From: an uncultured Candidatus Saccharibacteria bacterium
Lineage (GTDB): Bacteria > Patescibacteriota > Minisyncoccia > UBA6257 > UBA9933
Direction of reading: 5' to 3'
Length of the DNA stretch: 32,701 nt
Assembly (NCBI GenBank): GCA_964482855.1
Contig: CAYZYY010000001.1
Location: forward strand, 2,194-34,894
A program made the position numbers and the translations under genes. Positions 14,178 to 27,686 of the stretch are shown here, piece after piece (position 1 is the stretch's first letter; every line of letters starts with the position of its first letter). The notes beneath the pieces were generated by a model. That model searched no databases, was not told the origin of the DNA, and was given only the letters and a program-made list of their open reading frames with translations.

Positions 14178-14181
14178 TTTA

Positions 14182-14216: not shown

Positions 14217-14762
14217 ATGGCAAAAGTCAATATAGAAGGAGTAAAAATTGTTATCGGGCTGGGAAACCCAGGTAAAAAATACGAAAAAACTTACCATAAT
14301 ACGGGGTTTTTGGCCGTTGATTTTTTAATTAAAAACATCTCAGTTTCTTCCGGCCTTTCAAAATTCCGGATTCCGAGCTCCAAAAATTTCGGCTATGTTA
14401 AAATCGGGAAGTTGGTCCTTATTAAACCCCTAACCTTTATGAATAATTCCGGCAAAGCCGTAAAAGAGGCCATAAGATATTTCTCGGCAAAACCGGAGGA
14501 AGTTTTAATTATTCACGACGATTCCGATATTAATTTGGGAAAATGCAAAGTTTCTTTTGGCCGCGGTTCAGCCGGGCACCAAGGAGTGGAATCAATTGTA
14601 AAATTTTTACATACCAAAAACTTCCAGAGACTGAGAGTTGGCGTCAAACAGACGGGGAAAAAGGCCGAGGAAATCGTTTTGAAAAAAATCGGCAAAAATG
14701 ACTTAAAAATCATTGAAAAAGTTTTTAAAACAATCAATATAAAAGACCATGACAAATGCTAA
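14217..14762 (+). CDS. pth: Peptidyl-tRNA hydrolase
   Basis: GLGNPGKKYEKTYHNTGF N-terminal signature, 181 aa. Its 3' end overlaps the next ORF by 14 nt. Confidence 0.92.
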   Translation: MAKVNIEGVKIVIGLGNPGKKYEKTYHNTGFLAVDFLIKNISVSSGLSKFRIPSSKNFGYVKIGKLVLIKPLTFMNNSGKAVKEAIRYFSAKPEEVLIIHDDSDINLGKCKVSFGRGSAGHQGVESIVKFLHTKNFQRLRVGVKQTGKKAEEIVLKKIGKNDLKIIEKVFKTINIKDHDKC

Positions 14763-16071
14763 AAAAATAATAATTTTCTTCGGAGACATCCTGATTTTAT
14801 ACGGCGCCTTGGTTATTACTTTAATTTTCCGCTACGGACCGGATTATTTTCAGGAATCATTTCATGCCCACATTAAACCATTTTCACTGATTTTTATAAT
14901 TTGGGCGCTGATTTTTTATCTGGCCGATTTGTATAAAGACAAATATTTAAGAATCGGTTTGGCAACGATTCAGGTTTTTGCCATAGCAATTGTCGTCAGC
15001 GCGGTTAATTCAATAATTCTTTTCTACCTTTTCCCTTCGTTTTTCAATTTGACGCCAAAAACTAATCTGGTAATTTTTGCCCTGATTTTCGGAATCCTGG
15101 ACCTTGGCTGGCGGTTTGTTTTGGTTAAAATTTTCATTTCCGGCGGCTGGAGAAACCGCCTGCTTTTTATCGGCCAATCGCCGATTATTGACGAAGTCAT
15201 CAATTATCTTAAAAACAATCCCCAAACCGGATACGACGTTGTTTTTCGAACTGAAAAATATTCGGGACAAAAAGCGGAAAATGACATTAATCAAATCATT
15301 GATAGAGAAAAAATCAATACCATTGTCATTCAGCCCCATCTTAAAAAAGACCAAAAAATCACCAAGTTTTTTTATCAGTTAATTTCTTCAAAAATCGCCA
15401 TTGTGGATTTGGTAACCTTTTACGAAACGATTTTTCAAAAACTACCCGTAAACGAGCTTGAAGAAAGCTGGTTTATTGAAAAAATAACCGGCTACCGGCG
15501 ACTATATGACATAACAAAAAGAACCATTGATTTTGGATTGGCTTTGTTTTGGGGTATTATTTTATCGCCTTTTATCGTAATTATCGCCGTTTTAACGAAA
15601 CTAAGCTCCAGGAAAGGACCCGTTATTTACAAACAAGAAAGAATCGGGGCTAATAATAAAATTTTTACCCTTTATAAATTCGGAACAATGCAGTTGGATA
15701 AAGGAAAACTTTGGACTGTGAAAAACGACAAAAGATTGACTTCTGTGGGCAAGTTTCTTAATTATACCCATTTAAACGAGATTCCCCAACTTTATAATAT
15801 TATAAAAGGCGATATTTCTTTTATCGGACCAAGAGCCGAACGCCGGGAACTGGCTGAGCTTTACCAACAACTCCCCTATTATGAAATCCGCCACATTATA
15901 AAACCCGGGCTGACCGGCTGGGCCCAGGTTAATTACAAGCCGAGCGCCTCGCTTGAAGAAGCCAGGGAAAAACTGCAATATGACATTTATTACATTAAAA
16001 ACCGTTCTTTGATTCTGGACTTGATGATTTTATTGAAAACAATCAGATATTTATTCTTATCCAATCATTGA
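14749..16071 (+). CDS. Polyprenyl-phosphate sugar-phosphotransferase (bacterial sugar transferase, WbaP/EpsL-like priming enzyme)
   Basis: N-terminal multi-TM region. The C-terminal Bac_transf pattern is KRTIDFGLALFWGIILSPF...GPVIYKQERIGANNKIFTLYKFGTM ... LNEIPQLYNIIKGDISFIGPRAE. Confidence 0.9.
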   Translation: MTNAKKIIIFFGDILILYGALVITLIFRYGPDYFQESFHAHIKPFSLIFIIWALIFYLADLYKDKYLRIGLATIQVFAIAIVVSAVNSIILFYLFPSFFNLTPKTNLVIFALIFGILDLGWRFVLVKIFISGGWRNRLLFIGQSPIIDEVINYLKNNPQTGYDVVFRTEKYSGQKAENDINQIIDREKINTIVIQPHLKKDQKITKFFYQLISSKIAIVDLVTFYETIFQKLPVNELEESWFIEKITGYRRLYDITKRTIDFGLALFWGIILSPFIVIIAVLTKLSSRKGPVIYKQERIGANNKIFTLYKFGTMQLDKGKLWTVKNDKRLTSVGKFLNYTHLNEIPQLYNIIKGDISFIGPRAERRELAELYQQLPYYEIRHIIKPGLTGWAQVNYKPSASLEEAREKLQYDIYYIKNRSLILDLMILLKTIRYLFLSNH

Positions 16072-16083
16072 ACAAGTTTTAAA

Positions 16084-17541
16084 ATGAGCAAACTTAGGGA
16101 TTTTTTTTTCCGAAACACGAACTCCCGGCAAACCATTGCCAAAAACGTTTTCTGGCTCGGTTCGGGACAGATATTCGGCCGTTTGACGAGGGCTCTTTTT
16201 ATCATTTACGCGGCCCGTCTTTTAGGGGCGGCCGAATATGGCGTATTTTCTTACGCCCTCGGCCTGGCCGGTTTTTTCACTATCTTTGCCGATATTGGAA
16301 TCAGCCAGATACTTACCAGAGAAGCCAGCCGAAAACCGGACAAGGCGTCTTTTTATTTTGCCACTTCGTTTTGGATTAAAACCGTTCTTCTCTTGGGAAC
16401 CACCGCTTTAGTTATTTTTATAGCCCCGCATTTTTCTAAAATCGAATCCGCGAAAATAATTATTCCTTTCGTCAGTTTGCTCGTTATTTTCGATAATCTA
16501 CGGGAATTTTCAAACGCGTTTTTCAGAGCCAAAGAAAAAATGGAGCTTGAGGCCTTCGTAAATATTCTTATGAACGTTTCCATTGCTTTAATCGGTTTTA
16601 TCGTTATTTATTTTTCGCAAACCGCCAGAGCAGTCACTTTTTCCTATATAGGAAGCGCCGGCGCCGGCTTACTTGCCGCGGTTTTCATTCTTCGGGAAGA
16701 ATTTCTAAAAGTTATTAAAGACTTTGACCGGAAGCTTATCCGTCCATTATTGAAATCCTCCTGGCCCATTGCTTTAAGCGGACTACTAGGCGCTTTTATG
16801 TTGAATATCGACATTATTATGCTCGGCTGGCTCCGCTCGGCCCAGGAAATCGGATTTTACTCAGCCGGACAAAAGATAATCCAGCTCCTCTATGTTTTAC
16901 CTTCAATCGTCGCCAGCGCCATTTTTCCGGCCCTTTCCAGAGCAGTCGGAAAAAAAGAACACCCAAAAGCGACTCTCATTATGGAAAGAGGGATGGCATC
17001 TATTTTTTTTCTTGCCATTCCTTTGGTTGTCGGCGGAATCGTTCTCGGCGAACCCATTATTGATTTCCTATACGGGAACGGGTATCTTCCCGGCGTGTTA
17101 AACTTTCAAATCCTGCTTTCCACCGTCCTTATAATTTTCCCGCAAGCGCTTCTGGTAAATCTGGCGCTGGTCTACAACAAACAAAAAAAATTAGCCGCTT
17201 ACGCGGCTTTTGCCTCATTGGGCAATATAGGATTTAACGCTCTTCTTATTCCCAAATTCGGGATTGTTGGAGCGGCAATAAGCACGGTAATCGTCCAAAC
17301 TCTTTATATCAGCCTTACGTGGAATATGATTAAGAGAATAAATACATTCAAAACCATCGCAAGCCTTAAGAAAATATTCACCGCTTCGGTCCTGATGGGA
17401 ATTTCAAGTTTCTTCTTCAATAAAATGGGAATGAACCTCATTATTAATATCGTCGTCTCGGTCGGAATTTACCTGGGAATACTCGTTGTTTTGAAAGAGA
17501 AAATTTTAGAGGAATTAAAATCAATCAAAAACTCTTACTGA
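16084..17541 (+). CDS. MOP-superfamily polysaccharide flippase (Wzx-like)
   Basis: 485 aa with about 12 or more hydrophobic segments and a typical N-terminus (IAKNVFWLGSGQIFGRLTRALFIIYAARLLG). It follows the priming transferase. Confidence 0.8.
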   Translation: MSKLRDFFFRNTNSRQTIAKNVFWLGSGQIFGRLTRALFIIYAARLLGAAEYGVFSYALGLAGFFTIFADIGISQILTREASRKPDKASFYFATSFWIKTVLLLGTTALVIFIAPHFSKIESAKIIIPFVSLLVIFDNLREFSNAFFRAKEKMELEAFVNILMNVSIALIGFIVIYFSQTARAVTFSYIGSAGAGLLAAVFILREEFLKVIKDFDRKLIRPLLKSSWPIALSGLLGAFMLNIDIIMLGWLRSAQEIGFYSAGQKIIQLLYVLPSIVASAIFPALSRAVGKKEHPKATLIMERGMASIFFLAIPLVVGGIVLGEPIIDFLYGNGYLPGVLNFQILLSTVLIIFPQALLVNLALVYNKQKKLAAYAAFASLGNIGFNALLIPKFGIVGAAISTVIVQTLYISLTWNMIKRINTFKTIASLKKIFTASVLMGISSFFFNKMGMNLIINIVVSVGIYLGILVVLKEKILEELKSIKNSY

Positions 17542-18968
17542 AAAAGTTTCTTTAGGCTAGCCCTAATGGCCTCGGCGATATAAATAGGATTTTTCAACCT
17601 CATTACGTTTTTGAAGATGAATCTCGGAGAAAAGAAAAATCTCAGATTGGCCCGATGAACGACCTTCTTAAGCTCTTTATCTGAAAGATGAGGATAACTG
17701 ATATGAGCCGAACGAGCCACGTCTATCGGCTTGTATTCGCCGCCAACAATCCAATTTTCCTTTTTGGCGATGTCGTAAAACTCAGTCCCGGGAAACGGAC
17801 TACAAACGTCAAACATCACCTGGTCGGGCTTGATTTCCCTAATTTTTTTCAGAGTCGCCGCGATTGTTTCTTTTGTTTCCAAGGGACTGGCTCCGAATAA
17901 GATATTTAACTTGACGAAAATTTTGTGTTTTTTCAAGAGTTTAATACCCTCAACCAATTTTTCAACGGTCACGTCTTTTTTGGTATAATCCAGTATTTTC
18001 TGAACAAACGACTCAACCCCGATATCCACATATCTGCAGCCAGCCTCGCTTAATACTTTGACAATTTCTTCATCCAAGTGGTCTACCCTGGATAAACATC
18101 CCCAGGCAAAATTCAGGTCCTTAATTCCGGCGCAAATTTCCAAAATCCTTTCTTTGCCCAAAACAAATTGGTCGTCAATAATACTGATTGACCTATACCC
18201 CTGACTCTTTAAAATTTTGAATTCTTCAATCACGTTAGCGGCGCTCCTTACTCGAATCGGGGGCTTAAGGCAACCGCTCTTTTTCTTAAATTCCAATTCT
18301 CGGGCAAAACTCAAAGCGCAGGGCACGCAATAAATACACCGATGAGGACACCCCCTTGCGGCAAGCATTGCCGTAAAAGGCTTAAGCCCGAGTTTGGGAT
18401 TATAAAACGCGTTCTTTTTTATCAGATGCCTGGCCGGAAAAGGAAGCTTGTCTAAATTCTCAATTATCGGCCTGCTCTCGTTGCGAATTATTTCTCCCTT
18501 TTTAAGCCAGGAAAGTCCTTTAATTCTTTCCGGCGATTTGCCTCCAGCTATCGCTTCCACTAATTCAGGAACAGTAAGGTCCGGCTCTCCCATAACGGCG
18601 TAAAAATTTTCTTTGACTAAAAACTTCTCCGGAAAAAAAGTCGGCGCCGGACCCAAAAAAATAAATTTTTTATTATCATCAAACCTTGACGCCTTCTTGG
18701 CAAAATCAATATCTTTTTCCATTGAAAGATTAACTGAGAAAATCAAATAAACGTCGCTTTTATCCTTGGCGACGAATTTCTTGAATTGGTCTTCCTTTTT
18801 AAAATCCAAAAAATCCTGATTGTAAACAACCTCGTGTTTTTTCTCCAAAAGAGCGAGGATAATCAAGACATAAACGTTTGGAAAAGGATAGTTTGTGTAA
18901 CTACAGCCGAAAATCCGCTCAAATCTTTTTTTATTTTCGCCAACTGGCTCAATGTAAGAAATTTTCAT
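17535..18968 (-). CDS. B12-binding-domain radical SAM enzyme (class B rSAM-like)
   Basis: The N-terminal ~150 aa is Rossmann-like, as in cobalamin-binding rSAMs, followed by ARGCPHRCIYCV (CxxxCxxC). 477 aa. The ATG at 18968 overlaps the upstream TGA (ATGA). Confidence 0.8.
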   Translation of the reverse strand: MKISYIEPVGENKKRFERIFGCSYTNYPFPNVYVLIILALLEKKHEVVYNQDFLDFKKEDQFKKFVAKDKSDVYLIFSVNLSMEKDIDFAKKASRFDDNKKFIFLGPAPTFFPEKFLVKENFYAVMGEPDLTVPELVEAIAGGKSPERIKGLSWLKKGEIIRNESRPIIENLDKLPFPARHLIKKNAFYNPKLGLKPFTAMLAARGCPHRCIYCVPCALSFARELEFKKKSGCLKPPIRVRSAANVIEEFKILKSQGYRSISIIDDQFVLGKERILEICAGIKDLNFAWGCLSRVDHLDEEIVKVLSEAGCRYVDIGVESFVQKILDYTKKDVTVEKLVEGIKLLKKHKIFVKLNILFGASPLETKETIAATLKKIREIKPDQVMFDVCSPFPGTEFYDIAKKENWIVGGEYKPIDVARSAHISYPHLSDKELKKVVHRANLRFFFSPRFIFKNVMRLKNPIYIAEAIRASLKKLFQ

Positions 18969-19951
18969 TTTTTTGATGCGTAAAATTTAATTATGCCGCT
19001 CATCCATGCTATTGCCCTTAAGGCGACGAAGGCCGGCATAAAAACCCCGATGAACATCTTTTTATTTTTAATAAAAAATTTGATTTCGTCAAACTGGAAA
19101 ACGTAAATCAGAGCCGCAAAAAATACCGCAAAAATTAGAAAATCAGGATTAGACAAAAAAGCAAGAAGTAAGGACGCAAAGAAAATCAAACCCAAAGGCA
19201 ATTCCAGAAAATAACGCATGCTGGAAACCTGATCGCCCGACCAGCGCTTCGGGTGTTTTTTAATCAGCATCATTCTGGCCAAAGCGCCGTGTGTCCGTTG
19301 CTTCATAAACCCCATAAAGCTTTCCGGCCAGAAATGAAGACAAAAAGTCTTTTGGGAAAGCGCCAGTTTATAGCCGGAAGCAATCATCCGATAACTCAAT
19401 TCGTTGTCCTGGCCGTACCTGAATTTCGGGTCAAACAAGCCGACCTCGTCCAAAACCGACTTTCGATAAATCGTGTTGGTGGTGCTTAAATGGTCGACGA
19501 ATTCGGATTTTATCTTCGACTGCCGGTATTCCACGTTGTAACCGGCCAAAGCAGCCCAGATATTTCCAGGGTTCAATGTCTTCGTCAATCCCGCGACGGC
19601 CGCTATTTTTTTTCCACCAGAGGCGGATTCAAAATAAGGCAACAGCTCAAAGAGCCAGTTTTCATCAAGCACCACGTCTCCATCAAGTACGGTTATGAAT
19701 TCCTCCTCTATCATTGCCAGCCCGGTATTCAAAGATTTCGCCACGCCCTGATTTTTCTGAGAAACGTATTTGACGTTTTTATGCCGGCTTGCAAATTCTT
19801 TTATGATTTTGGCCGAATCGTCCGTACTTTCGTCGTCAACCACGATTATTTCTTTGAATTCCACCTGTTGGGACAACAACGATTCCAGGGTTTTGGCGAT
19901 GGTCTTCTGTTTGTTGTAAACCGTTATTACGGCACTGATACTTTTATTCAT
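18965..19951 (-). CDS. Family 2 glycosyltransferase with C-terminal TM segments (synthase-like)
   Basis: ISAVITVYN...VVDDESTDDS, a DxD-like motif LDGDVV, GQDNEL, and a QxxRW-position motif reading KQRTHG. The last ~90 aa are hydrophobic. Confidence 0.85.
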   Translation of the reverse strand: MNKSISAVITVYNKQKTIAKTLESLLSQQVEFKEIIVVDDESTDDSAKIIKEFASRHKNVKYVSQKNQGVAKSLNTGLAMIEEEFITVLDGDVVLDENWLFELLPYFESASGGKKIAAVAGLTKTLNPGNIWAALAGYNVEYRQSKIKSEFVDHLSTTNTIYRKSVLDEVGLFDPKFRYGQDNELSYRMIASGYKLALSQKTFCLHFWPESFMGFMKQRTHGALARMMLIKKHPKRWSGDQVSSMRYFLELPLGLIFFASLLLAFLSNPDFLIFAVFFAALIYVFQFDEIKFFIKNKKMFIGVFMPAFVALRAIAWMSGIIKFYASKK

Positions 19952-19961
19952 AATTACTTGT

Positions 19962-19996
19962 AACGGCTCAACGCGTTGAGCCGTTGAATTTTTATA
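19962..19996 (+). terminator. 24-bp perfect palindrome followed by a T-run on the plus strand
   Basis: AACGGCTCAACG|CGTTGAGCCGTT (19962-19985), then GAATTTTTAT. On the minus (operon) strand it is followed by ACAAGTAATT and then the ATG, with no U-tract. Confidence 0.35.
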
Positions 19997-20962
19997 TTAG
20001 CATTCCGGCAACCGCAGCATCTCGCAGCCATCGCAGACTAAATTTGAATTTTTCCTGAATTTTCTGAATTTCTCGCCGTTCCAAACCTCTTCAAGCGATT
20101 GCGAAAGCAAATCACCCAGCTCGTACGTAGGCAAAGAACAGCAAGGCGTGGCTTTACCGGAATGAGTGATGTAAACATAATCGTACAGTTTCGGACAGGG
20201 CCTGTTTTTACGAAACAGCCGCCGGCCGAAAAGAATAAAAAGTCTTCTCTTAATGCCGGTAAAAGCGGAAAAGGGTAAGAAATCAACCCTGATTTTAAGC
20301 TTATCGGAAAACGTCATTATTTTTTCAGCTAATTCGAACTCTTCCTCCGCGCGAAAAGAGGGTAAATTTTTGTTGAATCTCCGGTCCAATCTGGCGATGT
20401 TTATCCTGTCCACGCCCAGTTCTTTGCCTTTCTTGATAAGTTCCAGTAATTCGCCTTCTTTGCCCTTATGCAAAGTAGGCTGAAGTATTACCAGCGGCTT
20501 TTTGTTTTGTCTTGAAGAAATAAGGTTTTGGACGACGCTTTTTATTGAATGACTATGATGACGGGGATCCTGGCTAGCTAATTCTTCAAAAGAGTCTACT
20601 GATAAACTAATGGAATCCAGTTCGTCATTCACTAATTTTTCAATCATTTCCTGGTTAAGCAGCGTCGCATTGGTCGTCAATTCCACGAGACATTTTTTTC
20701 GCTTAAAAATCCTGATAGCCTCGTGTATCCGCGAGTACAAAAGCGGCTCGCCCCAGCCAGTCAGGGTAATTTCAGAACCGGCCGGAATCTTTTCCGCTAT
20801 TCTTTTCAGGGTCGCAAAATCCATGTCCTCATATTCCAAATTAAAATCCTTTCTCGGACACATAAAACAATCCAGATTGCATTTGTTGGTTATCTCAATC
20901 TGGATTTTTGACGGCCTCTTCGGCACGCTAAAAAATAACCTTTTGAAGAATTTAAAAATCAT
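19997..20962 (-). CDS. Radical SAM enzyme with a C-terminal SPASM-type Cys-rich domain
   Basis: ITNKCNLDCFMCP (CxxxCxxC). The C-terminal auxiliary-cluster pattern is RPCPKLYDYVYITHSGKATPCCSLP ... CDGCEM. 321 aa. Confidence 0.85.
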   Translation of the reverse strand: MIFKFFKRLFFSVPKRPSKIQIEITNKCNLDCFMCPRKDFNLEYEDMDFATLKRIAEKIPAGSEITLTGWGEPLLYSRIHEAIRIFKRKKCLVELTTNATLLNQEMIEKLVNDELDSISLSVDSFEELASQDPRHHSHSIKSVVQNLISSRQNKKPLVILQPTLHKGKEGELLELIKKGKELGVDRINIARLDRRFNKNLPSFRAEEEFELAEKIMTFSDKLKIRVDFLPFSAFTGIKRRLFILFGRRLFRKNRPCPKLYDYVYITHSGKATPCCSLPTYELGDLLSQSLEEVWNGEKFRKFRKNSNLVCDGCEMLRLPEC

Positions 20963-21016: not shown

Positions 21017-21844
21017 TCAATTTTGGACCTTTAATTTCTCATAAATCTTGGCGTCAACCAAAAATCTGTACCAAAATCCCTGCAAAAAATGGAATATTAA
21101 TCCTTCTTTGCCATCGAGAAAACCAAGGCGGAAAATATATCTGTACGTAAAATACGCGCAGGCTCTAAAAAACAACGGCGCTTTAAAGTATAAATTTCTT
21201 AGGAAGCGGCGCCGGCGCCTCTTATCCTTAAACTCTTTTTCATCGCCTTTGTTTTTTAATTGGCTTTCGGCTTCCAAAGTGGACCATTTATTATGCCTCT
21301 CTGTAAATCTGGCCAAAGAATCGGATATGATGTCTATGATGTCGGATTTTAGAATTTGAATCTTTCCGTCTACGATGAAATGTTGGTCGTAGGGCTTGTG
21401 TTCGCAATACCCCTTATTTTTGCGAAACAGAGGCGCGTGATAAGTGGGATAATGACCGCCATGCTTTATCCACTTGCCCATAAAAATAGTTTTACGGCTC
21501 ATTAGAAATCCATTAAAATTTTCATCAGCGCCCGTGGAAAATTTTCCGATTAACTCCTTTTTTAATTCCGGTGCGACCCTGTGATCGGCATCGAGATTGA
21601 AGACCCAATCGGTTTTTATAGGAAGATTTTCCAATGCCCAATTTCTTTGTTCAGAATAATTATCAAATTCGTGACATACCAACTCTACCTTGAATTTTTT
21701 GGCGATATCAACGGTTTTATCGCTGGAATAAGAATCAACCACGAAAATTTTCTCTACCCAACCGAAAACGCTTTCAATACAATCCTTAATGTTATTCTCT
21801 TCATTATATGTAAGAATTATTACGCTAATTGGAAGTTTATCCAT
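21017..21844 (-). CDS. Family 2 glycosyltransferase (soluble, WaaE/KdtX-like architecture)
   Basis: ISVIILTYNEENNI...VVDSYSSDKT, LDADH as the DxD equivalent, and a C-terminal GFLDGKEGLIFHFLQGFW helix region. Confidence 0.85.
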   Translation of the reverse strand: MDKLPISVIILTYNEENNIKDCIESVFGWVEKIFVVDSYSSDKTVDIAKKFKVELVCHEFDNYSEQRNWALENLPIKTDWVFNLDADHRVAPELKKELIGKFSTGADENFNGFLMSRKTIFMGKWIKHGGHYPTYHAPLFRKNKGYCEHKPYDQHFIVDGKIQILKSDIIDIISDSLARFTERHNKWSTLEAESQLKNKGDEKEFKDKRRRRRFLRNLYFKAPLFFRACAYFTYRYIFRLGFLDGKEGLIFHFLQGFWYRFLVDAKIYEKLKVQN

Positions 21845-21889: not shown

Positions 21890-23074
21890 TTATAAGAATC
21901 CGCATAAACCTATTATTTTTTTATATTGCCCGATAAATTCTTCGGCTAAAATGTCCGGAGAAAAGCTGTTTTTTACTAATTTCCAGCCGTTTTCCCTTAT
22001 TTTGCGGGAAAACTGCTTATTTTTCAATACCTTTAAAATGGCGGCCGCAAATTCCTTATTTTCTTTTTTTACCACGATTCCTGCATTATTTTCGCTGATT
22101 TCTCCGCTAATTCCGACCCCGTCGCTTACCACGACGGGTAAACCGCAATGCATCGCTTCTACGACAGACATTCCGAAGTTTTCCGAATATGTCGGAAGAA
22201 CGAAAACATCGCTTTCTTTAAAAGCCCCCGCCTTATCCTCATTTAAAAGCATGCCCGTAAATAAAGTTTTCTCGCCGACTCCAAATTCCTCAATTAATCT
22301 ATCTACCTCTTTTTTATAATCCTGGTCGCTTTCGCCGGCGATGACCAAAAAACAATCGGGGTCATTCTTCAAAACTTCGGCGAAAGCCGGAATAAGGGTG
22401 TCAAATCCTTTTTTCCAGTTAATCCTGCCCAAAGATAAAATTGTTTTTTTGTCTTCGGGGATACTGAATTTTTTTCTGAATTCGGTTTCTTTATATTTAT
22501 CCAAATCAGTCGAGTCCAATGCGTTGGGTACGATGAAAAAAGACTTGAAATTCAGGCCCGCTTCCAAATATTCCTTTTTTTCTTTTTCAACGGTGAAATG
22601 AATCGCCGAAGCGCCTAAGAGATTCCTTTTTTCAATAAGCGCCAAATATATTTTTTTAACCAACGGCCTCCTCATCCGGAGAGGTTCTTTCATCAGGCTT
22701 CCCCTCGGAGAAATTATGTAGGGCTTGTCCCATTTTTTCGCGTAATGCGCCCCGAGCGCCGAAGCCGAAAGAAAGACCGAAGTGATATGAATTAAATCAA
22801 AGTCCTTTGTCCTTCTTTTTAATTCCCGGTGAAGATTTTTAGAATATTCCCATTTTCTAAAAGAAACCGGGAAATACCAGACCTTGACTCCGTCAATGAG
22901 CGTTTCTTGGCAAAGAGGAACATCGGTCGTACCCTTGCAGTCTATATTGGTCGTGAACACGGTGATATCCGCGCCTTTTTTAACCAACCACTTATTGAGT
23001 GAGTGGACGCTTAAAATAGGGCCGCCATACCGGTAAGCGGGCAAATAGCTTGGAACTATATGGAGTATTTTCAT
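21890..23074 (-). CDS. GT4-family (group 1) glycosyltransferase
   Basis: N-terminus MKILHIVPSYLPAYRYGGP and C-terminal E-x7-E region PTYSENFGMSVVEAMHCGLPVV. Confidence 0.88.
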   Translation of the reverse strand: MKILHIVPSYLPAYRYGGPILSVHSLNKWLVKKGADITVFTTNIDCKGTTDVPLCQETLIDGVKVWYFPVSFRKWEYSKNLHRELKRRTKDFDLIHITSVFLSASALGAHYAKKWDKPYIISPRGSLMKEPLRMRRPLVKKIYLALIEKRNLLGASAIHFTVEKEKKEYLEAGLNFKSFFIVPNALDSTDLDKYKETEFRKKFSIPEDKKTILSLGRINWKKGFDTLIPAFAEVLKNDPDCFLVIAGESDQDYKKEVDRLIEEFGVGEKTLFTGMLLNEDKAGAFKESDVFVLPTYSENFGMSVVEAMHCGLPVVVSDGVGISGEISENNAGIVVKKENKEFAAAILKVLKNKQFSRKIRENGWKLVKNSFSPDILAEEFIGQYKKIIGLCGFL

Positions 23075-23081
23075 ATTTGCG

Positions 23082-24650
23082 TTAATTGGTTCTTTTTTTG
23101 ATTTTAGACATCGTTTTATTTATAAAATTATCTACAATTTTTCTCTCTTGCGGTTTTAGCCATAAAAAGTAAGTAAACGCCATACCCACTGCCGCCATCA
23201 CAATGCCTAAAACAAACAGCTTTGTCCATGAAACGAAAACCATGCTCAAGAGCCAGCCAAAAGTTAAAAGAATGACGGCTAAAATTCCACCAACCCAGAA
23301 TATATAAAAATAATCCTTAAATCTCCCTTTAATTATATGAGTGGTTCTCCTTGGTATCCACCAAAGATTAATGAGTATCTCGGGAATCATAAAGCCCGCT
23401 ACGACGCCAATAATTCCCCAATAATGGACAAAAATCAACGCCAATCCCAAACCAATCAAAGATGAAATTATACTGACCACGGAATAACCAGTATATTTGT
23501 TCGTCGCTATTTGGAATACAGCGCTAAAATGCCAGATAGCGTACAATGGCACGCTAAGCAAAAGTATGTTCCAAAGGCCGCCATTGAAAATTATCTTTCC
23601 ACTTGTCCAAATATTAATTATTCCCTCGCCGGTAAAAAACAAAAACACGACCGAGATAACTGAAAGCATTATGGCTATTTTTAAAAACATATTATGAATA
23701 ACACGGAGTTTCGTATAATCGTCCCTCGCTTCACCGGCAGTTAACTCCGGTGAGAGAGCCGGCACCATAATATTCACCGCTCTTTTTACAAGATTAGCTA
23801 ACGTTCTATGAACCGCAAATGCGGCGACTGCAACCGACCCCAAAACCGAACCTATTATAAGTACGCTTCCTTGAATCTGAATCGCATAGGAAAGCGTAAT
23901 TAACATAAAAACCAACCCCGGAATGATAAAGCTTTTCACCAAAAGCCAGTCAATTTTTTCTTTAAAAAGTTCCAACTCCTTATGTCTCCTTGTGACATCC
24001 CAAAAAACAAAACAAAGAAATAAAAAGAGCAGGATTAAATACAAAAATGCTACGCTTACAAACTTGCCCCCAAAAACAAGGGTAAGGGCGATAAAACCAA
24101 TAAGGATAAAGTTTTTAATGTTGCCTACCAATTTTCCTCGTACAAATTCTCCAATACTAATATACAATCCCGCTATTGGAGAAGACATGACGCCGAGTAA
24201 AATATAACTACCCAAGATAAGAACCGTTACCTGGATCGTACTCTTTTTAGTAATTTCAATATTAAACCAATCATTGAGGGGCAAAACAAAAGCCGTGACT
24301 AAAATCAATCCCAAACCGACAGTAATTAAAATTAAGTAAAGAAAAAAAGCGCTTTTAAAAATTTTTCCATATTCTTTTAAATCTCCGCGCGAGTAGACTT
24401 GAATCATCTTGTTGGTGATATAACCCTCCATTCCCAATTCCGATAAAGCAAAATAACTTATCAAAGAAAAAAGAGTTATCCATTCCCCGTATATAACGCT
24501 CCCCCACGCCCAAAGAAATAAGGGGATAAGAATAACGTGCTCCAGCGTCCTTATCGCATCACCCATAAAAGTCATTGCGCTCCCCAAGGCGGTCCGTTTG
24601 GCCGTACCCACTAAAGGATACCCCTTATTAGAAACTATTTTGTTATTCAT
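23082..24650 (-). CDS. Polytopic membrane protein, MOP flippase-like (polymerase role not excluded)
   Basis: 522 aa with at least ten hydrophobic segments by eye. The glycan-operon context supports the call. The start overlaps the carbamoyltransferase stop (TAATG). No diagnostic motif was recognised. Confidence 0.55.
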   Translation of the reverse strand: MNNKIVSNKGYPLVGTAKRTALGSAMTFMGDAIRTLEHVILIPLFLWAWGSVIYGEWITLFSLISYFALSELGMEGYITNKMIQVYSRGDLKEYGKIFKSAFFLYLILITVGLGLILVTAFVLPLNDWFNIEITKKSTIQVTVLILGSYILLGVMSSPIAGLYISIGEFVRGKLVGNIKNFILIGFIALTLVFGGKFVSVAFLYLILLFLFLCFVFWDVTRRHKELELFKEKIDWLLVKSFIIPGLVFMLITLSYAIQIQGSVLIIGSVLGSVAVAAFAVHRTLANLVKRAVNIMVPALSPELTAGEARDDYTKLRVIHNMFLKIAIMLSVISVVFLFFTGEGIINIWTSGKIIFNGGLWNILLLSVPLYAIWHFSAVFQIATNKYTGYSVVSIISSLIGLGLALIFVHYWGIIGVVAGFMIPEILINLWWIPRRTTHIIKGRFKDYFYIFWVGGILAVILLTFGWLLSMVFVSWTKLFVLGIVMAAVGMAFTYFLWLKPQERKIVDNFINKTMSKIKKRTN

Positions 24651-26431
24651 TATTTATAAATAATATAATTATTTAAAACCAAAATATCTATTCCACTCCT
24701 TTCAAAAGTGGAATAGGCGTCCTTTGGCGTACTAACTATCGGCTCTCCCTTCAGATTAAAAGAAGTGTTAAGAATTAAAGGAACGCCGGTCATCTCAAAA
24801 AATTTACTTATAAGCTTATAATACCTTGGAGACTCCTCTTTAAAAACCAATTGAGGCCTGGCGCTTCCGTCCACATGGGTTATCGCCGGAACGTTTTTCT
24901 TTTTTTCTTCCCTGACCGGAACGACGTAAAGCATAAATCTCGCAGGATAATGCCTTTTGGCATCCGGCATTTCAAATATCTCTTCCGCGCGTTCGGCCAA
25001 AACCGATGGAGCAAAAGGCCTGTATGGCTCACGAAATTTTATTTTTGTATTCACAATATCTTTCATATCCTCTCGACGGGGGTCAGCTAAAATGGAACGA
25101 TTCCCTAACGCCCTTGGCCCCCACTCGAATTTCCCATGGAACCATCCTATTACCTTTCCGTTTGCAATCTCCCTGGCAATTTTCCCGACAAGCTCGTTTT
25201 CGCTTTCGATATATTCGTATCCTATTCCGTTTTCTTCCAAAAAATTTTTTATTTCATCGCTTGAATATTCTTTTCCGTAATAAGCGTGCTTCATTTCAAA
25301 CTTTCTCTCTCCGTCAAACGCCAAATGATTTATTGCCATTGCGGCGCCAAAAGCTCCACCCGCGTCCCCGGCCGCTGGGTGGATAAAAAGCTCTTCAAAC
25401 GGAGTATTTTGAAGAATCTTCCAATTTGCCACTGAATTAAGGGCTACTCCTCCGCCAAAACAAAGCTTATCCAAGCCGGTTATTTTATGAATGTGATTCG
25501 CCAGACGAATTACCGCTTCTTCATGAACCGCCTGAAGCGAAGCGGCTATATCCGCATAATACTCTTGTTCTTCTGCCGTTTTTTCATATTTTTTTCCCTC
25601 TGGTTTTTTACCGAAATAGGACGGCCAGCCAGTATCACGGGTAAAAAATTTGGATTTCGGGTCCCTTGGTTTTCCGAAAACATCGATGAACCGCGAAGAA
25701 TAAGTTTTTTCAAGCGAACGGTAAAAAGAAAAATATTCCAAATTAAGAGAATAAGAACCGTCTTCAAGAAAATTAATCATTTTTTTGACTTTATCCGCGT
25801 ATTTCGGCTTGCCGTAAGGCGCCATTCCCATTACTTTATATTCTCCCTCATTCACTTCGAATCCCAAAAAGGCGGTAAAGGCCGAATAAAGCAGTCCTAA
25901 TGAATGCGGGAATTTAATCTCTTTTAAAATTCTTATTTTATTTCCTTCACCGATTCCAACCGTCGTAACGGCCCATTCGCCTACCCCGTCAACCGTGAGT
26001 ATCGCCGATTTCTCAAACGGCGAAGAAAAAAAAGATGATGCCGCGTGAGATAAATGGTGTTCGGAAAAAAGTATCTTGTCCGAAGCAATACCGAGCTCTT
26101 TAGCGATAATCGCCCGTATCCAAATTTTTTTCAGAAAAAGATTTTTGACCGATTTTATGAAAACCCGGGGAGCCAAGGGAAAAACCGCCATATCGGTTTT
26201 AAGTATTCTCTCCATTTTCAAAAATGGCTTCTCGTAAAAAACGACCCAGTCCAAATCGGTCGCTTTTATTCCCGTCTCTTTCAAAACGAAATCTATTGCG
26301 CCTTTGGGAAATTCGGCGTCGTTTTTTTTCCCGGAAAATCTTTCTTCCTGCGCCATTGAAACGGGAATGCCGTCTATCACCAACGCAGCCGCTGAATCAT
26401 GATAAAAAAACGATAAACCAAGAATGCGCAT
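24650..26431 (-). CDS. NodU/CmcH-family carbamoyltransferase
   Basis: N-terminus MRILGLSFFYHDSAAALVIDG, HHLSHAASSFF, and C-terminal ILNTSFNLKGEPIVSTPKDAYSTF. 593 aa. Confidence 0.92.
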   Translation of the reverse strand: MRILGLSFFYHDSAAALVIDGIPVSMAQEERFSGKKNDAEFPKGAIDFVLKETGIKATDLDWVVFYEKPFLKMERILKTDMAVFPLAPRVFIKSVKNLFLKKIWIRAIIAKELGIASDKILFSEHHLSHAASSFFSSPFEKSAILTVDGVGEWAVTTVGIGEGNKIRILKEIKFPHSLGLLYSAFTAFLGFEVNEGEYKVMGMAPYGKPKYADKVKKMINFLEDGSYSLNLEYFSFYRSLEKTYSSRFIDVFGKPRDPKSKFFTRDTGWPSYFGKKPEGKKYEKTAEEQEYYADIAASLQAVHEEAVIRLANHIHKITGLDKLCFGGGVALNSVANWKILQNTPFEELFIHPAAGDAGGAFGAAMAINHLAFDGERKFEMKHAYYGKEYSSDEIKNFLEENGIGYEYIESENELVGKIAREIANGKVIGWFHGKFEWGPRALGNRSILADPRREDMKDIVNTKIKFREPYRPFAPSVLAERAEEIFEMPDAKRHYPARFMLYVVPVREEKKKNVPAITHVDGSARPQLVFKEESPRYYKLISKFFEMTGVPLILNTSFNLKGEPIVSTPKDAYSTFERSGIDILVLNNYIIYK

Positions 26432-26436
26432 AATCG

Positions 26437-26661
26437 TTATTCTGCCTTAAAATATTCCAAGGAATCCGGACTTGATTCTTTTTTCACCCAACTTGATTTT
26501 TCCGGTTTTAAATTTACGTCTTTGGAAAAAAATCTAAACGGAATCGCGAATATTGCGAAAACCGTGAAATAAAAAATTATCATCACTATGGTGGTAATGA
26601 AATTTCCTATGAAAAATCCTATTTTCTCTAAATAAAGCCGGAGTGTTTTAAATGTCTTCAT
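26437..26661 (-). CDS. Small membrane protein resembling the C-terminal half of SxtJ-family proteins
   Basis: Start taken at the ATG at 26661 (MKTFKTL...), which avoids overlap with the upstream gene. One or two TM segments. IIFYFTVFAIFAIPFRFFSKDVNLKPE resembles, from memory, the SxtJ-type segment found next to carbamoyltransferases. Confidence 0.5.
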   Translation of the reverse strand: MKTFKTLRLYLEKIGFFIGNFITTIVMIIFYFTVFAIFAIPFRFFSKDVNLKPEKSSWVKKESSPDSLEYFKAE

Positions 26662-26662
26662 T

Positions 26663-26854
26663 TCAAAATAAAGCGTAAATAAACGGGCCGAGCGGCGAAC
26701 TTTGGGCAAAAATCATCAATAAGAAAAATACGACTAATACAAAAATCATTGGTATCAACCACCACATTTTATTTTTCCATAAAAAAGAAATGAGGCTTTT
26801 GATTGTTGAAAATCTTATTTTAACGCCGTTTAAAAAAGAAATGAAGAAATTCAT
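26663..26854 (-). CDS. DUF5989 / SxtK-like mini membrane protein
   Basis: 63 aa containing WKNKMWWLIPMIFVLVVFFLLMIFAQSSPLGPFIYALF. A single TM segment and a C-terminal PFIYxLF end are what I recall for DUF5989 proteins that accompany carbamoyltransferases. Confidence 0.65.
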   Translation of the reverse strand: MNFFISFLNGVKIRFSTIKSLISFLWKNKMWWLIPMIFVLVVFFLLMIFAQSSPLGPFIYALF

Positions 26855-26889
26855 AAATCTTTCATCGATTAAATGTTTTATTCTTACGA

Positions 26890-27684
26890 CTAAATGGCAA
26901 AAACCGGTATTCCTGAAAATTTGACGCGTTTATAACCGCAGCCGGTCAGAAAATCTGATATCATTTTTTCTGAAAAACCGCGTTTTGTCAAAGCCGCCTT
27001 ATGAAATTCCAGACAAATTGCTTTGACCCGGTGATTCTTAAAAAAATTTTCACTTCCCATTATAACGTCGTATTCCCAACCCTCAACGTCTATTTTTACC
27101 GCTTCGCACCCGTTGATGCCTTCTTTTTGCAATGCATCTTCCAGAGTTAAAACGGAAACCCTTTGTTTTGGCAAAGGATAAACGGTAGATTTTATAAAAG
27201 AGGAAGAACCGCTGTTTATTCCCGGTGAAATATAAAGATTGGCTTCTCCGGCTTCCCTGCCCAGGGCTATCGGCAAAACGGTTACGTTTTTGCAGTCGTT
27301 CAATTCAATGTTTCTGGATATTACCTTTTGCAAACGCTCTTGGGGTTCAATTGCGATTACTCTTCCGGCACCTCCCACCAATTTTGAAGCTACGATGGAA
27401 AAGTACCCTTCATTTGCCCCGATATCAACGAAAATATCGCCCTTAGATAAATATTTAAACAAAAAATTGATTGTTTCCGGTTCGTAAACTCCATTTAAAA
27501 TCAGGTCTTGGCCAAATAAAGAAACGGGGTCTATGAAAAATTTTCCAAATTTGGTTTTTTCCGTAACGCGTTTCAAAAAAATAATTTTTTTTAAAACTGA
27601 AGCCGCAAACGCGGGACGGACGGCCATGATAAATCTTGTCATTTTAGTTAATATTTTTTTACGGCTGTTTTTTTCGTTTTTCAT
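26890..27684 (-). CDS. FkbM-family SAM-dependent methyltransferase
   Basis: FVDIGANEGYFS motif, IAIEPQ, KIDVEGWEY. 264 aa. Confidence 0.85.
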   Translation of the reverse strand: MKNEKNSRKKILTKMTRFIMAVRPAFAASVLKKIIFLKRVTEKTKFGKFFIDPVSLFGQDLILNGVYEPETINFLFKYLSKGDIFVDIGANEGYFSIVASKLVGGAGRVIAIEPQERLQKVISRNIELNDCKNVTVLPIALGREAGEANLYISPGINSGSSSFIKSTVYPLPKQRVSVLTLEDALQKEGINGCEAVKIDVEGWEYDVIMGSENFFKNHRVKAICLEFHKAALTKRGFSEKMISDFLTGCGYKRVKFSGIPVFAI

Positions 27685-27686
27685 AA

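Follow-up and report, generated by a model that had tools for sequence, protein, structure and literature searches.

Organization of the locus

The window analyzed here, namely the whole 32.7-kb stretch of DNA, contains two radical-SAM (rSAM) genes with a family-2 glycosyltransferase (GT2) gene between them, as an earlier note made from the sequence alone had proposed. All three genes are on the minus strand and, together with a second GT2 gene, are transcribed in the order GT2a, rSAM2, GT2b, rSAM1. The features of this cassette are as follows.

17535..18968, minus: rSAM1, class-B-type rSAM, 477 aa; N-terminal Rossmann fold, CX3CX2C core, C-terminal helical cap
18965..19951, minus: GT2b, family-2 glycosyltransferase, 328 aa; PF00535 at 4e-31
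19961..19986, no strand: stem-loop (perfect 11-bp stem, 4-nt loop) in the 45 nt that separate the end of rSAM2 from the start of GT2b
19997..20962, minus: rSAM2, 321 aa; BtrN-like twitch (abridged SPASM) C-terminal domain
21017..21844, minus: GT2a, soluble family-2 glycosyltransferase, 275 aa; PF00535 at 1.5e-18

Intergenic gaps in the cassette are 45-54 nt, and the GT2b stop overlaps the rSAM1 start in the ATGA coupling already noticed. In the relative L001 the spacer measures 8 nt and the stem-loop is not kept. The membrane anchor proposed for GT2b was found as hydrophobic stretches spanning residues 245-290 and 299-321 (2-3 transmembrane segments at the C-terminus); a search of GT2a for such a segment found none. 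Further Pfam matches of GT2b were Glyco_tranf_2_3 and, weakly, Glyco_transf_21 (ceramide-glucosyltransferase-type), and its top NCBIfam match was PgaC/IcaA (2e-30, under cutoff). The surrounding genes are listed below.

14749-16071, plus: priming phosphoglycosyl transferase (Bac_transf), PF02397 at 6e-58
16084-17541, plus: Wzx-type flippase, Polysacc_synt at 1.3e-38
21890-23074, minus: GT4, HpsP-like
23082-24650, minus: multi-TM protein, 522 aa, without family match
24650-26431, minus: NodU-like carbamoyltransferase
26437-26854, minus: two small membrane ORFs, one of them DUF5989
26890-27684, minus: FkbM methyltransferase
27687-28757, minus: SGNH/GDSL-like protein
28754-29938, minus: GT4
29935-31405, minus: two class I methyltransferases
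31420-31986, minus: Glyco_trans_1_2 protein
31987-32496, minus: ORF of 169 aa

The genes at 21890..32496 form the upstream part of the cassette operon, with gaps or overlaps of at most 54 nt throughout. The Bac_transf and flippase genes (14749..17541, plus strand) converge with the cassette, the flippase and rSAM1 stops overlapping by 7 bp, and the same convergent arrangement occurs in L001, L002, L008, and L092. No Wzy or ligase gene was recognized in the window. The reduced-genome host suspected earlier proved to be of the CPR type (FtsZ 82% identical to that of Candidatus Wolfebacteria). The presence of NrdD and NrdG genes in the window points to an anaerobic lifestyle, in keeping with the oxygen lability of rSAM enzymes.

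Domain content of rSAM1

The CPHRCIYC motif of rSAM1 was confirmed as C207-x3-C211-x2-C214 (Pfam Radical_SAM, 1.4e-17). The B12-binding N-terminal domain proposed for this protein fared less uniformly. Pfam PF02310 gave no score even at E<=10 and, taken by itself, speaks against B12 binding, but evidence at the profile, motif, and structure levels rescued the call. PF02310 was likewise absent from the whole clade at >=55% identity, and most family members at 45-51% identity score it. The rSAM1 family profile aligned the N-terminal domain to the cobalamin domains of OxsB, CysS, and TokK; the alignment with OxsB, the second-best PDB profile match, spanned residues 21-378 (3.5e-15). When the cobalamin motif definitions of PMC9204698 were used, the family-invariant residues G106 (beta-4) and G127-E128 (start of alpha-5), together with an OxsB-like SVN(L) motif, lined up with their counterparts in OxsB and CysS. 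Moreover, the domain, a Rossmann, cobalamin-domain-like fold over about residues 1-165, has 13 invariant positions in residues 21-128 and is clearly under purifying selection. When the AF2 model of rSAM1 (pLDDT 93) was compared with solved structures by Foldseek, AprD4 ranked first (TM 0.75-0.79, full length), followed by CysS, TsrM, MgmA, OxsB, and TokK. Cobalamin dependence of rSAM1 is plausible from these motifs. In the 32.7 kb of the window, Pfam annotation of the large ORFs yielded no domain for cobalamin uptake or salvage, and no cobalamin riboswitch was found.

Domain content of rSAM2

The CNLDCFMC motif of rSAM2 was confirmed as C28-x3-C32-x2-C35 (Pfam Radical_SAM, 8.6e-19). The earlier assignment of its C-terminus to the SPASM type held at the level of Pfam (SPASM PF13186, 1.5e-13, above the gathering score), but the full seven-cysteine SPASM motif is missing and the domain is of the twitch type. 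In the family alignment the C-terminal region has five conserved cysteines, and the chain ends 8 residues past the CxxC; the domain is therefore twitch-size, with room for one auxiliary cluster. The predicted 4Fe-4S site comprises C256, C274 or C275, C310, and C313. rSAM2 has no RiPP- or peptide-recognition domain (RRE), since its rSAM core begins as early as residue 22.

The C-terminus of the rSAM2 family profile aligned to the twitch domain of BtrN (PDB 4M7T), a 2-deoxy-scyllo-inosamine dehydrogenase with a carbohydrate-type substrate. The four auxiliary-cluster cysteines align, both proteins end just past the CxxC, and both are small (~250-320 aa) and without a peptide-recognition domain; however, overall similarity is weak (profile E ~1e-15), and rSAM2 has the extra conserved C275 and a longer core. 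Foldseek with the AF2 model (pLDDT 92) returned SuiB, BlsE, SkfB, anSME, DesII, and BtrN, of which BtrN, BlsE, and DesII ranked near the top by sequence or by fold, and the peptide maturase SkfB and the lipid enzyme Tes were also near the top of the profile search. The best NCBIfam match was TIGR04317, a tungsten-cofactor oxidoreductase rSAM maturase (129 bits over residues 18-305; cutoff 380), and no aldehyde-ferredoxin oxidoreductase gene lies next to rSAM2. Although rSAM2 has its overall fold in common with TIGR04317 and the SPASM maturases (PqqE, SkfB, SuiB, anSME), it differs from them in having no seven-cysteine motif, second auxiliary cluster site, RRE, or precursor gene. The absence of a nearby precursor-like ORF, noted previously, was upheld: the intergenic gaps are the short ones given above, and the only small ORFs of the operon are the single-pass membrane proteins that adjoin the carbamoyltransferase. 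An evident precursor peptide was never found beside rSAM2 relatives either.

Conservation of the cassette

The order rSAM2-GT2b-rSAM1 was found in all close relatives with sequence (L001, L002, L003, L008, L010, L092-L095). GT2a lies upstream wherever the contig extends that far (syntenic in L001, L003, L008, L092, L094, and L095), with an extra gene inserted in some.

Members of the rSAM1 family were found in at least 517 GTDB species, spread over Brocadiales, Bacteroidales, Omnitrophota, WOR-3, Spirochaetota, and archaea. When co-occurrence with GT2 genes was examined, a directly adjacent same-strand GT2 gene was present in 57 of 80 rSAM1-family loci, and GT2 genes made up 53 of 148 flanking genes (36%) versus 8 of the 855 remaining genes up to 10 kb away (0.9%; odds ratio 59), counts drawn from loci that are not phylogenetically independent. 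The GT2 partners are 17-26% identical across phyla and mostly without TM segments (33 of 48), and the partner is thus not one orthologous GT2. A rSAM2-family gene lies within 10 kb in only 12 of the 80 loci. The set of rSAM2, rSAM1-family, and GT2 genes recurs, in other orders, both in Brocadiaceae (L006, L013-L035) and in metagenome loci L091, L097, L101, L104, L110, L131, L154, and L155.

Across many phyla, homologues of both enzymes lie with glycosyltransferase or sugar-nucleotide genes. Relatives of rSAM2 often adjoin glycosyltransferase or rSAM1-family genes; a marine subgroup (34-35% identity) is solitary, beside ORFs whose layout resembles that of the aconitase-type genes in L090, and no glycan genes were recognized there. 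When six Pfam-annotated contexts were looked up, five were glycan-linked and none had a small cysteine-rich or leader-type gene.

A proposed pathway of sugar modification after transfer

Given the gene order, the ATGA coupling, the domain content, and the retention of the cassette among close relatives, together with the direct adjacency of rSAM1-family and GT2 genes across phyla and the recurrent three-gene set, the four-gene block most likely rewrites sugars after their attachment. We somewhat favor the fuller reading that GT2a-rSAM2-GT2b-rSAM1 is a conserved cassette for sugar addition followed by radical modification, within a Wzx-type surface-glycan operon of an anaerobic member of the Patescibacteria (CPR). 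The earlier proposal that both enzymes act on a sugar or lipid-linked intermediate agrees with the gene context and with the nearest curated or solved relatives, most of which (HpnJ, AprD4, OxsB, BtrN, BlsE) have sugars or lipid-linked sugars as substrates. HpnJ, AprD4, and OxsB, the nearest relatives of rSAM1, all act on sugar rings. Neither the rSAM1 nor the rSAM2 family has a characterized member, and HpnJ is known only from knockouts (PMC13459092, PMC9092360), so that the chemistry proposed is an analogy at 26-28% identity.

In the proposed pathway, membrane-anchored GT2b would transfer a hexose or hexosamine onto a membrane-bound acceptor, which would be either a lipid or the undecaprenyl-PP-linked repeat unit that Bac_transf initiates. 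rSAM1, which its coupling to GT2b probably keeps at the membrane, would then change the sugar just added at an unactivated carbon, by means of the 5'-deoxyadenosyl radical and a cobalamin bound to the N-terminal domain of the enzyme. Cobalamin-dependent C-methylation is our single best guess for this reaction, and a tentative one. rSAM2, with its BtrN-like twitch domain and one auxiliary cluster, may carry out two-electron chemistry at a sugar carbinol carbon, yielding a ketone by oxidation, an epimer, or the product of a decarboxylation- or dehydration-type step; this step may prepare for that of rSAM1 or come after it. The tailored unit would then be O- or N-methylated and carbamoylated by enzymes of the upstream genes and flipped by Wzx. 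The post-glycosylation radical chemistry of such a cassette has so far been studied in no organism.

Tailoring after glycosyl transfer is also the mode of cobalamin-dependent class B enzymes that act on sugars or lipid-linked sugars, such as the ring contractase OxsB and the C-methylases GenK, GenD1, and MoeK5 (PMC9204698). Those enzymes serve antibiotic synthesis, whereas rSAM1 would serve primary surface-glycan synthesis; in addition, OxsB, TokK, and CysS have further domains at the N- or C-terminus that are absent from rSAM1.

Alternative explanations

Close behind C-methylation, and somewhat less probable, we place a ring rearrangement of the HpnJ/OxsB type. rSAM1 would act like HpnJ, Cds, or PtmC and contract the hexose or hexosamine added by GT2b to a five-membered carbocycle (cyclitol), yielding a glycan or glycolipid with a carbasugar. 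HpnJ was the top curated family for every rSAM1-family member tested, and for rSAM1 itself it led the NCBIfam ranking by 80 bits (197 bits, followed by BchE at 115, PhpK, and AprD4). In the HpnI-HpnJ-HpnK system (TIGR03472, TIGR03471, TIGR03473), which converts bacteriohopanetetrol glucosamine to the cyclitol ether, a GT2 gene is likewise followed directly by the gene for a class-B-type rSAM of ~475 aa, and the sugar is attached before it is radically modified, although HpnJ chemistry rests on genetics only. Reviews describe the same sequence, glycosyl transfer first and rSAM chemistry second, for calditol and pactamycin (PMC13459092, PMC9092360), and OxsB, which ranks high among the matches, is a cobalamin-dependent sugar ring contractase. 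However, the HpnJ score is far under the equivalog cutoff of 577.6 and identity to true HpnJ is 28% (residues 72-458, E 3e-36); rSAM1 was therefore rejected as HpnJ itself and placed in a sister family. GT2b was rejected as HpnI (no significant similarity, E 5.4), the window holds no HpnK-type deacetylase, the cassette has a twitch rSAM partner, and rSAM1 sits in a Wzx/Bac_transf glycan operon rather than in a hopanoid context. Moreover, HpnJ groups with the methylases Fom3 and MoeK5 in a similarity network (PMC9204698), so that similarity to HpnJ cannot tell rearrangement from methylation, and methylases are the majority of characterized class B enzymes.

It is unlikely, though worth weighing, that GT2b and rSAM1, with or without rSAM2, build or modify a membrane glycolipid head group and that their position in the operon is organizational only. 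In Bacteroidota the pair stands alone, and its neighbors encode a lipid kinase (DAGK_cat), a GlpD-like dehydrogenase, and an FAD-linked oxidase (L088); in Brocadiaceae it is found outside glycan loci and close to genes for CDP-alcohol phosphatidyltransferase and inositol phosphatase (L006). Lipid-linked sugars are substrates of HpnJ and Cds, and the weak Glyco_transf_21 match of GT2b points the same way. In the window and in all close relatives, however, the cassette is kept tightly spaced among glycosyltransferase, Wzx, and Bac_transf genes, and many other rSAM1-family members are surrounded by abundant GT4, Wzx, Bac_transf, or PMT_2 genes (L005, L026, L036, L043, L053, L091).

Less likely still, the N-terminal domain of rSAM1 might hold no cobalamin, and the enzyme might act on a sugar diol in an AprD4-like manner, by dehydration, deoxygenation, or some other redox-neutral reaction. 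AprD4 (PDB 6FD2; NF033070), the rSAM 1,2-diol dehydratase of apramycin biosynthesis, acts on the sugar ring of a glycoside and has the same two-domain architecture with an N-terminal Rossmann domain; it was the best PDB match by sequence (4e-22; profile 1.7e-34) as well as by fold. To our knowledge, AprD4 is cobalamin-independent and its N-terminal domain binds no cobalamin, and CPR genomes generally lack cobalamin synthesis. The failure of PF02310 to detect the domain in rSAM1 and its closest clade fits this alternative, under which the cofactor scavenging that had been suggested would be unnecessary in a reduced genome. On the other hand, the AprD4 sequence alignment is limited to the core and C-terminus of rSAM1 (residues 169-438) and rSAM1 scores 98.6 with the AprD4 NCBIfam model (cutoff 500), whereas the N-terminal domain, under purifying selection, aligns to the cobalamin binders with matching Gly and Gly-Glu motifs.

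Finally, that one or both enzymes are peptide or protein maturases, of the RiPP type or anSME-like on a secreted or glycosylated protein, is very improbable: SPASM enzymes usually have such roles, rSAM2 passes the Pfam SPASM model, and its leading fold and NCBIfam matches include peptide and metalloenzyme maturases, but its cysteine set is only twitch-size, recognition domain and precursor are both lacking, TIGR04317 scores far under cutoff, and the contexts looked up were nearly all glycan-linked.

Organization of the cassette and its operon

The two radical SAM enzymes lie at the 3′ end of an approximately 15-kb minus-strand operon, in a cassette transcribed in the order GT2a-rSAM2-GT2b-rSAM1.

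Genes of the cassette
21017-21844, minus strand: GT2a, a soluble family-2 glycosyltransferase, a tightly spaced gene of the cassette
19997-20962, minus strand: rSAM2, 321 aa, with the motif CNLDCFMC (C28/C32/C35)
18965-19951, minus strand: GT2b, a membrane-anchored family-2 glycosyltransferase (PF00535, 4e-31) with hydrophobic stretches (residues 245-290 and 299-321)
17535-18968, minus strand: rSAM1, 477 aa, with the motif CPHRCIYC (C207/C211/C214)

Both rSAM1 and rSAM2 carry the CX3CX2C motif and exceed the Pfam gathering threshold for Radical_SAM (PF04055, cutoff 29.5), with 64.8 bits (1.4e-17) and 68.8 bits (8.6e-19), respectively, which places them in the radical SAM superfamily. The stop codon of GT2b overlaps the start codon of rSAM1 as ATGA. 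An earlier note had described two radical SAM genes bracketing a membrane-anchored GT2, with this ATGA coupling; the motifs and Pfam scores confirm that description, to which the minus strand, omitted there, is now added. Two further details of gene spacing were observed. The stop of the convergent, plus-strand Wzx flippase gene and that of minus-strand rSAM1 share 7 bp (17535-17541). Also, rSAM2 and GT2b are separated by 45 nt, and a stem-loop (19961-19986; 11 bp without mismatch, 4-nt loop) takes up most of this spacer; it stops 9 nt short of the GT2b ATG and is missing in the related locus L001, whose corresponding spacer has 8 nt.

The operon was defined by tight gene spacing; promoter and terminator predictions were set aside because their counts were no higher than in shuffled sequence.

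Genes of the operon upstream of the cassette
minus strand: two GT4 glycosyltransferases and a Glyco_trans_1_2 protein
minus strand: NodU-like carbamoyltransferase and its small DUF5989 membrane partner
minus strand: FkbM methyltransferase and two class I methyltransferases
minus strand: SGNH/GDSL-like protein
23082-24650, minus strand: protein of 522 aa, predicted to cross the membrane many times, without a Pfam or NCBIfam match
26437-26854, minus strand: overlapping pair of small single-TM ORFs, which immediately precede the NodU-like carbamoyltransferase gene

The operon converges on genes for a Bac_transf priming enzyme (6e-58) and a Wzx-type flippase (Polysacc_synt, 1.3e-38). With these two proteins and its glycosyltransferases (two GT2, two GT4 and Glyco_trans_1_2), the region has the priming enzyme, MOP-family flippase and glycosyltransferases of a Wzx/Wzy-type locus. 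No Wzy polymerase or O-antigen-ligase-type gene was recognized in the window by Pfam or NCBIfam; the 522-aa multi-TM protein is possibly a flippase or polymerase that has diverged strongly. Window GC content was uniform throughout, and the search of the window for RNA families, the cobalamin riboswitch among them, gave no match. The remainder of the window is housekeeping in character: it encodes HisRS, FtsA/FtsZ, SecDF, YbeY and an anaerobic ribonucleotide reductase of class III, whose activase is the third radical SAM enzyme in the window.

Other genes of the window
73-1401, minus strand: 442-aa ORF with a TTG start and one N-terminal TM segment, without a Pfam or NCBIfam family match
1531-2556, minus strand: 341-aa protein joining Sigma70 region 4 and HARE-HTH, an unusual combination
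4871-7694, minus strand: NrdD (702 aa) and its radical SAM activase (230 aa), class III anaerobic ribonucleotide reductase
31987-32496, minus strand: 169-aa ORF without a Pfam or NCBIfam family match

The NrdD-activase pair is a marker of a strictly anaerobic lifestyle, and the FtsZ of the window was 82% identical to that of Candidatus Wolfebacteria, with its next matches in Parcubacteria/Patescibacteria. Given the class III reductase and the FtsZ matches, the source organism is an anaerobic CPR bacterium.

The N-terminal domain of rSAM1

The earlier note had assigned rSAM1 a B12-type N-terminal domain and had taken the Pfam B12-binding model as its own yardstick. By that yardstick the assignment fell, as PF02310 gave no match to rSAM1 even at E≤10, but it is supported by NCBIfam, homologue, structure and profile evidence. 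All strong NCBIfam matches were class-B families (HpnJ, 197.4 bits; BchE, 115; PhpK, 102; AprD4, 98.6; then a ladderane-type B12 radical SAM), and several alignments began at about residues 36-67. Among homologues, those at ≥55% identity to rSAM1 had no precomputed PF02310 annotation, whereas at 45-51% identity most had one (Brocadiaceae, Omnitrophota, Methanoperedens and Aenigmarchaeota). In Foldseek, the AF2 model of rSAM1 (pLDDT 93) superposed along the entire chain on AprD4 (TM 0.75-0.79), followed by CysS, TsrM, MgmA, OxsB and TokK at probability 1.0. When the rSAM1-family profile was compared with PDB sequences, it aligned with OxsB (21-378, 3.5e-15), CysS (58-225, 1.2e-12) and TokK (87-223). 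Profile and Foldseek results thus both indicate that rSAM1 opens with a Rossmann domain that is a homologue of the cobalamin domains in class B enzymes of known structure. Mean column conservation in the family was 0.57 in the N-domain vs 0.70 in the core, by which measure the N-domain is clearly constrained.

Base-off cobalamin binding is associated with a Gly(-Gly) on β4, a Gly-Glu opening α5 and a downstream GxSxL-type motif (PMC9204698). In rSAM1, invariant G106 at the end of β4 occupies the Gly-Gly position of CysS, but the next residue is Pro, not Gly; invariant G127-E128 at the start of α5 aligns with the Gly-Glu of OxsB and CysS; and S78-V-N-L aligns with LSVNF of OxsB. These motifs appear compatible with cobalamin binding, short of proof. 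On the four lines of evidence, the N-terminal 165 residues read as a cobalamin-type domain, and, with the motifs and conservation added, cobalamin binding by rSAM1 is a plausible, still unproven prediction. The rival reading, a cobalamin-independent AprD4-like reaction, draws on AprD4, the closest solved structure, which is not known to depend on cobalamin. Set against this reading, AprD4 aligned with the rSAM1-family profile only from residue 169 on. In the AprD4 family test (NF033070, cutoff 500), rSAM1 scored 98.6 bits. C291 and C311 of rSAM1 were considered as ligands of an auxiliary cluster and dropped, because both also occur in AprD4. For annotation, the absence of a PF02310 match does not exclude a cobalamin domain.

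rSAM2 as a predicted twitch enzyme

The "SPASM" label that rSAM2 had received stands as a Pfam match, with PF13186 reaching 51.2 bits at residues 256-313 (1.5e-13; cutoff 21.5), but not as a full SPASM domain. In a 43-member alignment of the rSAM2 family, only C256, C274, C275, C310 and C313 were conserved after the core. The chain ends at residue 321, 8 residues past the CxxC, and C321 is not conserved, so the seven-cysteine motif of a full SPASM domain with two auxiliary clusters (CX9-15GX4C...CX2CX5CX3C...C) is not present in rSAM2. Residues 255-324 of the rSAM2-family profile aligned with residues 184-262 of BtrN (4m7t_A), its C-terminal twitch-domain region, cysteines coincided at all four auxiliary-cluster positions of BtrN, and the BtrN chain likewise terminates right after its CxxC. 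Because of this cysteine set, chain end and alignment, rSAM2 is predicted to be a twitch (half-SPASM) enzyme of the BtrN type, with room for one putative auxiliary cluster. Its AF2 model (pLDDT 92) matched the SPASM/twitch group in general in Foldseek (SuiB, BlsE, SkfB, anSME, DesII, BtrN and PqqE).

Maturation of a peptide by one or both radical SAM enzymes fared worst among the rival readings: it can cite the SPASM match and the best curated family of rSAM2, the W-cofactor oxidoreductase maturase TIGR04317 (129 bits, below the cutoff of 380), and it is opposed by a window without an adjacent precursor gene or an RRE/PqqD-like domain, by two radical SAM proteins with no Pfam domain beyond Radical_SAM and SPASM, by the opening of the rSAM2 core at residue 22, which indicates that rSAM2 has no peptide-recognition domain, and by rSAM2-family contexts in none of which a precursor-type gene was seen. 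The earlier note had likewise found no precursor-like ORF nearby; the cassette spacers measure 45-54 nt. The small ORFs at 26437-26854 were rejected as precursor peptides, being single-TM proteins that adjoin the carbamoyltransferase; the 63-aa ORF is a DUF5989 protein (Pfam, 2.3e-15) and the 90-aa ORF has no family match. Small membrane proteins of this kind accompany carbamoyltransferases in other clusters. The main inference of that note was that the substrate is a sugar or a lipid-linked intermediate and not a peptide, and the genomic context supports it. A Pfam SPASM match does not imply a peptide maturase.

Comparison of rSAM1 with HpnJ

The best NCBIfam match of rSAM1, HpnJ (TIGR03471), fell far below the equivalog cutoff (197.4 bits vs 577.6), as did the rSAM1-family proteins P0108 and P0026 (174 and 214 bits). 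rSAM1 was 28% identical to true HpnJ over residues 72-458. In a true hpnI-hpnJ-hpnK locus (L172) the genes are contiguous and, as in GT2b-rSAM1, the GT2 precedes the radical SAM gene; GT2b and true HpnI are unrelated, however (BLASTP E 5.4). GT2b was therefore rejected as an HpnI orthologue, and the HpnI model weakly touched only 5 of the 48 GT2 partners of rSAM1-family genes. The window annotation held no YdjC/HpnK-type gene, and no squalene-hopene cyclase, HpnH or HpnG was found within its 32.7 kb. By sequence, rSAM1 is best placed as a class-B enzyme sister to HpnJ among the NCBIfam families and PDB proteins compared. The radical SAM family of the cassette lies under every curated equivalog threshold and is uncharacterized.

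HpnJ is known from knockouts only, as needed to convert hopanoid-linked glucosamine to the cyclitol ether, and calditol synthase and PtmC are proposed to carry out equivalent chemistry on other glycosides (PMC13459092, PMC9092360). Because HpnJ groups with the C-methylases Fom3 and MoeK5 in a published similarity network (PMC9204698), likeness to HpnJ cannot separate rearrangement from methylation.

Conservation of the cassette and linkage to GT2 genes

Among the candidates scored, 2132 matched the rSAM1 family at E≤1e-10, and the family occurs in at least 517 GTDB species. The order rSAM2-GT2b-rSAM1 was kept in all close relatives with enough sequence (loci L001, L002, L003, L008, L010 and L092-L095), with GT2a upstream wherever the contig extends that far. 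In L008, FtsZ is on the same 22-kb contig as the cassette, indicating a chromosomal position common to L008 and the window. An extra class-B radical SAM gene is often inserted in the cassettes of close relatives, of which the window has the minimal version; PF02310-positive paralogues, one or two per locus, were seen at 4606-6054 of L001, 10177-11595 of L003 and 4495-5943 of L092. More distant loci (L101, L097) hold three or four class-B radical SAM genes with one GT2 and one twitch radical SAM.

In 57 of the 80 top-ranked GTDB loci, the rSAM1-family gene directly adjoined a GT2 gene on its own strand. Of 148 flanking genes, 53 were GT2, vs 8 of the 855 remaining genes up to 10 kb away (odds ratio 59); these counts are without phylogenetic correction, but they cover Brocadiales, Bacteroidales, WOR-3, Fermentibacteria and archaea. 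A Bac_transf enzyme took the place of the GT2 in two loci (L036, L053). Partner GT2s were only 17-26% identical outside the close clade, and of 48 partners 33 lacked TM segments and 15 had them, so a single orthologous membrane-anchored partner in all phyla was rejected. The closest rSAM1 matches carry the GTDB labels "Saccharibacteria", "Methanosarcinales" and "Omnitrophota"; horizontal transfer is suggested, not demonstrated, because these are MAG labels that may reflect binning.

Twelve of the 80 rSAM1-family loci, most of them in Brocadiales, had a rSAM2-family gene at a distance of up to 10 kb. A metagenome scan seeded with rSAM2 gave 70 evaluable loci: glycan genes were present within 3 kb in 31, a rSAM1-family gene in 21 and a directly adjacent glycosyltransferase in 17. 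Recurring layouts were GT2-rSAM2 with dTDP-sugar genes, GT4-rSAM2-GT4, and a multi-class-B cluster with one GT2 and one rSAM2. In a marine subgroup (L090, L106, L128; 34-35% identity), the rSAM2 relative is solitary and divergent from a pair of 432-434-aa and 188-190-aa ORFs, and no glycan genes were recognized nearby; the pair is aconitase large and small subunit (LeuCD-like) by Pfam in L090, and L106 and L128 are known by ORF layout only.

A glycolipid, not a polysaccharide, as the target is a rival reading on which the relatives bear in both directions. Convergent Wzx and Bac_transf genes follow the cassette in L001, L002, L008 and L092, as in the window. In the anammox loci examined (L006 and L013-L039, Brocadiaceae; Brocadia, Kuenenia, Jettenia and Loosdrechtia MAGs and unclassified Planctomycetota), the rSAM1-GT2 pair is directly upstream of purM, a rSAM2 homologue lies ∼0.03 to ∼3.6 kb upstream, and the whole set is outside any polysaccharide locus. 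The AIRS-domain gene after rSAM1-GT2 in Brocadiales was dropped as a fourth module member, as it is purM (445 bits, above the cutoff). In a Bacteroidota MAG (L088, 10001-12325), rSAM1-GT2 is a stand-alone two-gene unit; its opposite-strand neighbors encode a DAGK_cat lipid kinase, a GlpD-like dehydrogenase and a FAD-linked oxidase, and there are hints of a lipid target of the pair in that lineage.

Proposed pathway and significance

The pathway that we propose starts from four observations: the cassette architecture, the translational coupling, the conservation in close relatives and the association, across phyla, of the rSAM1 family with GT2. GT2b would attach a sugar to a membrane-bound acceptor, and rSAM1, aided by cobalamin, would next alter an unactivated carbon of that sugar. 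rSAM2 would perform BtrN-like two-electron chemistry on a sugar carbinol, and the sugar unit would then be methylated and carbamoylated, and afterwards flipped. For rSAM1, we favor C-methylation tentatively, at somewhat less than an even chance; a HpnJ/OxsB-like rearrangement is somewhat less likely, and so, to a like degree, is a chemistry other than these two. Rather improbable is the reading in which the cassette yields a carbocyclic or carbon-skeleton-rearranged sugar in a CPR surface glycan, with rSAM1 a cobalamin-dependent, HpnJ/OxsB-like ring contractase and rSAM2 its BtrN-like oxidizing partner. If true, ring contraction on a GT2b-installed hexose would take HpnJ/Cds-type chemistry for the first time beyond hopanoids and the lipids of archaea; it would define a widespread module of at least 517 species, gut Bacteroidales and anammox bacteria among them; and a host-dependent, ultra-small bacterium would need scavenged vitamin B12 for its surface coat.

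A glycosyltransferase with a sugar-tailoring radical SAM enzyme is an already known kind of system. To our knowledge, such tailoring otherwise belongs almost entirely to antibiotic pathways (gentamicin, apramycin, butirosin, blasticidin and moenomycin); we also know of two lipid head groups so tailored, the hopanoid cyclitol ether and calditol, the enzymes of both of which have never been reconstituted. Literature searches on the cassette family, on radical SAM enzymes in Patescibacteria glycan loci and on those of anammox S-layer glycans turned up nothing specific. New here are a putative HpnJ-sister class-B enzyme tied to a neighboring GT2 in hundreds of species and at least 10 phyla, and one lineage that joins rSAM1-GT2 with a predicted twitch radical SAM inside an ordinary surface-polysaccharide operon. 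Once worked out, the chemistry would give bacterial glycans a new kind of modified sugar, offer a tractable soluble-plus-membrane pair for HpnJ-type studies, and bear on what CPR symbionts take from their partners (cobalamin, reducing power) for their surface.

A glycan-type cluster was also seen on the 27-kb plasmid 1 of Lawsonia intracellularis (L173, NC_008012.1). It extends over 2402-15185 and holds three GT2s, GalE, DUF2304, five class I methyltransferases, a 487-aa class-B-like radical SAM protein 26% identical to rSAM1, and a second radical SAM protein of 376 aa.
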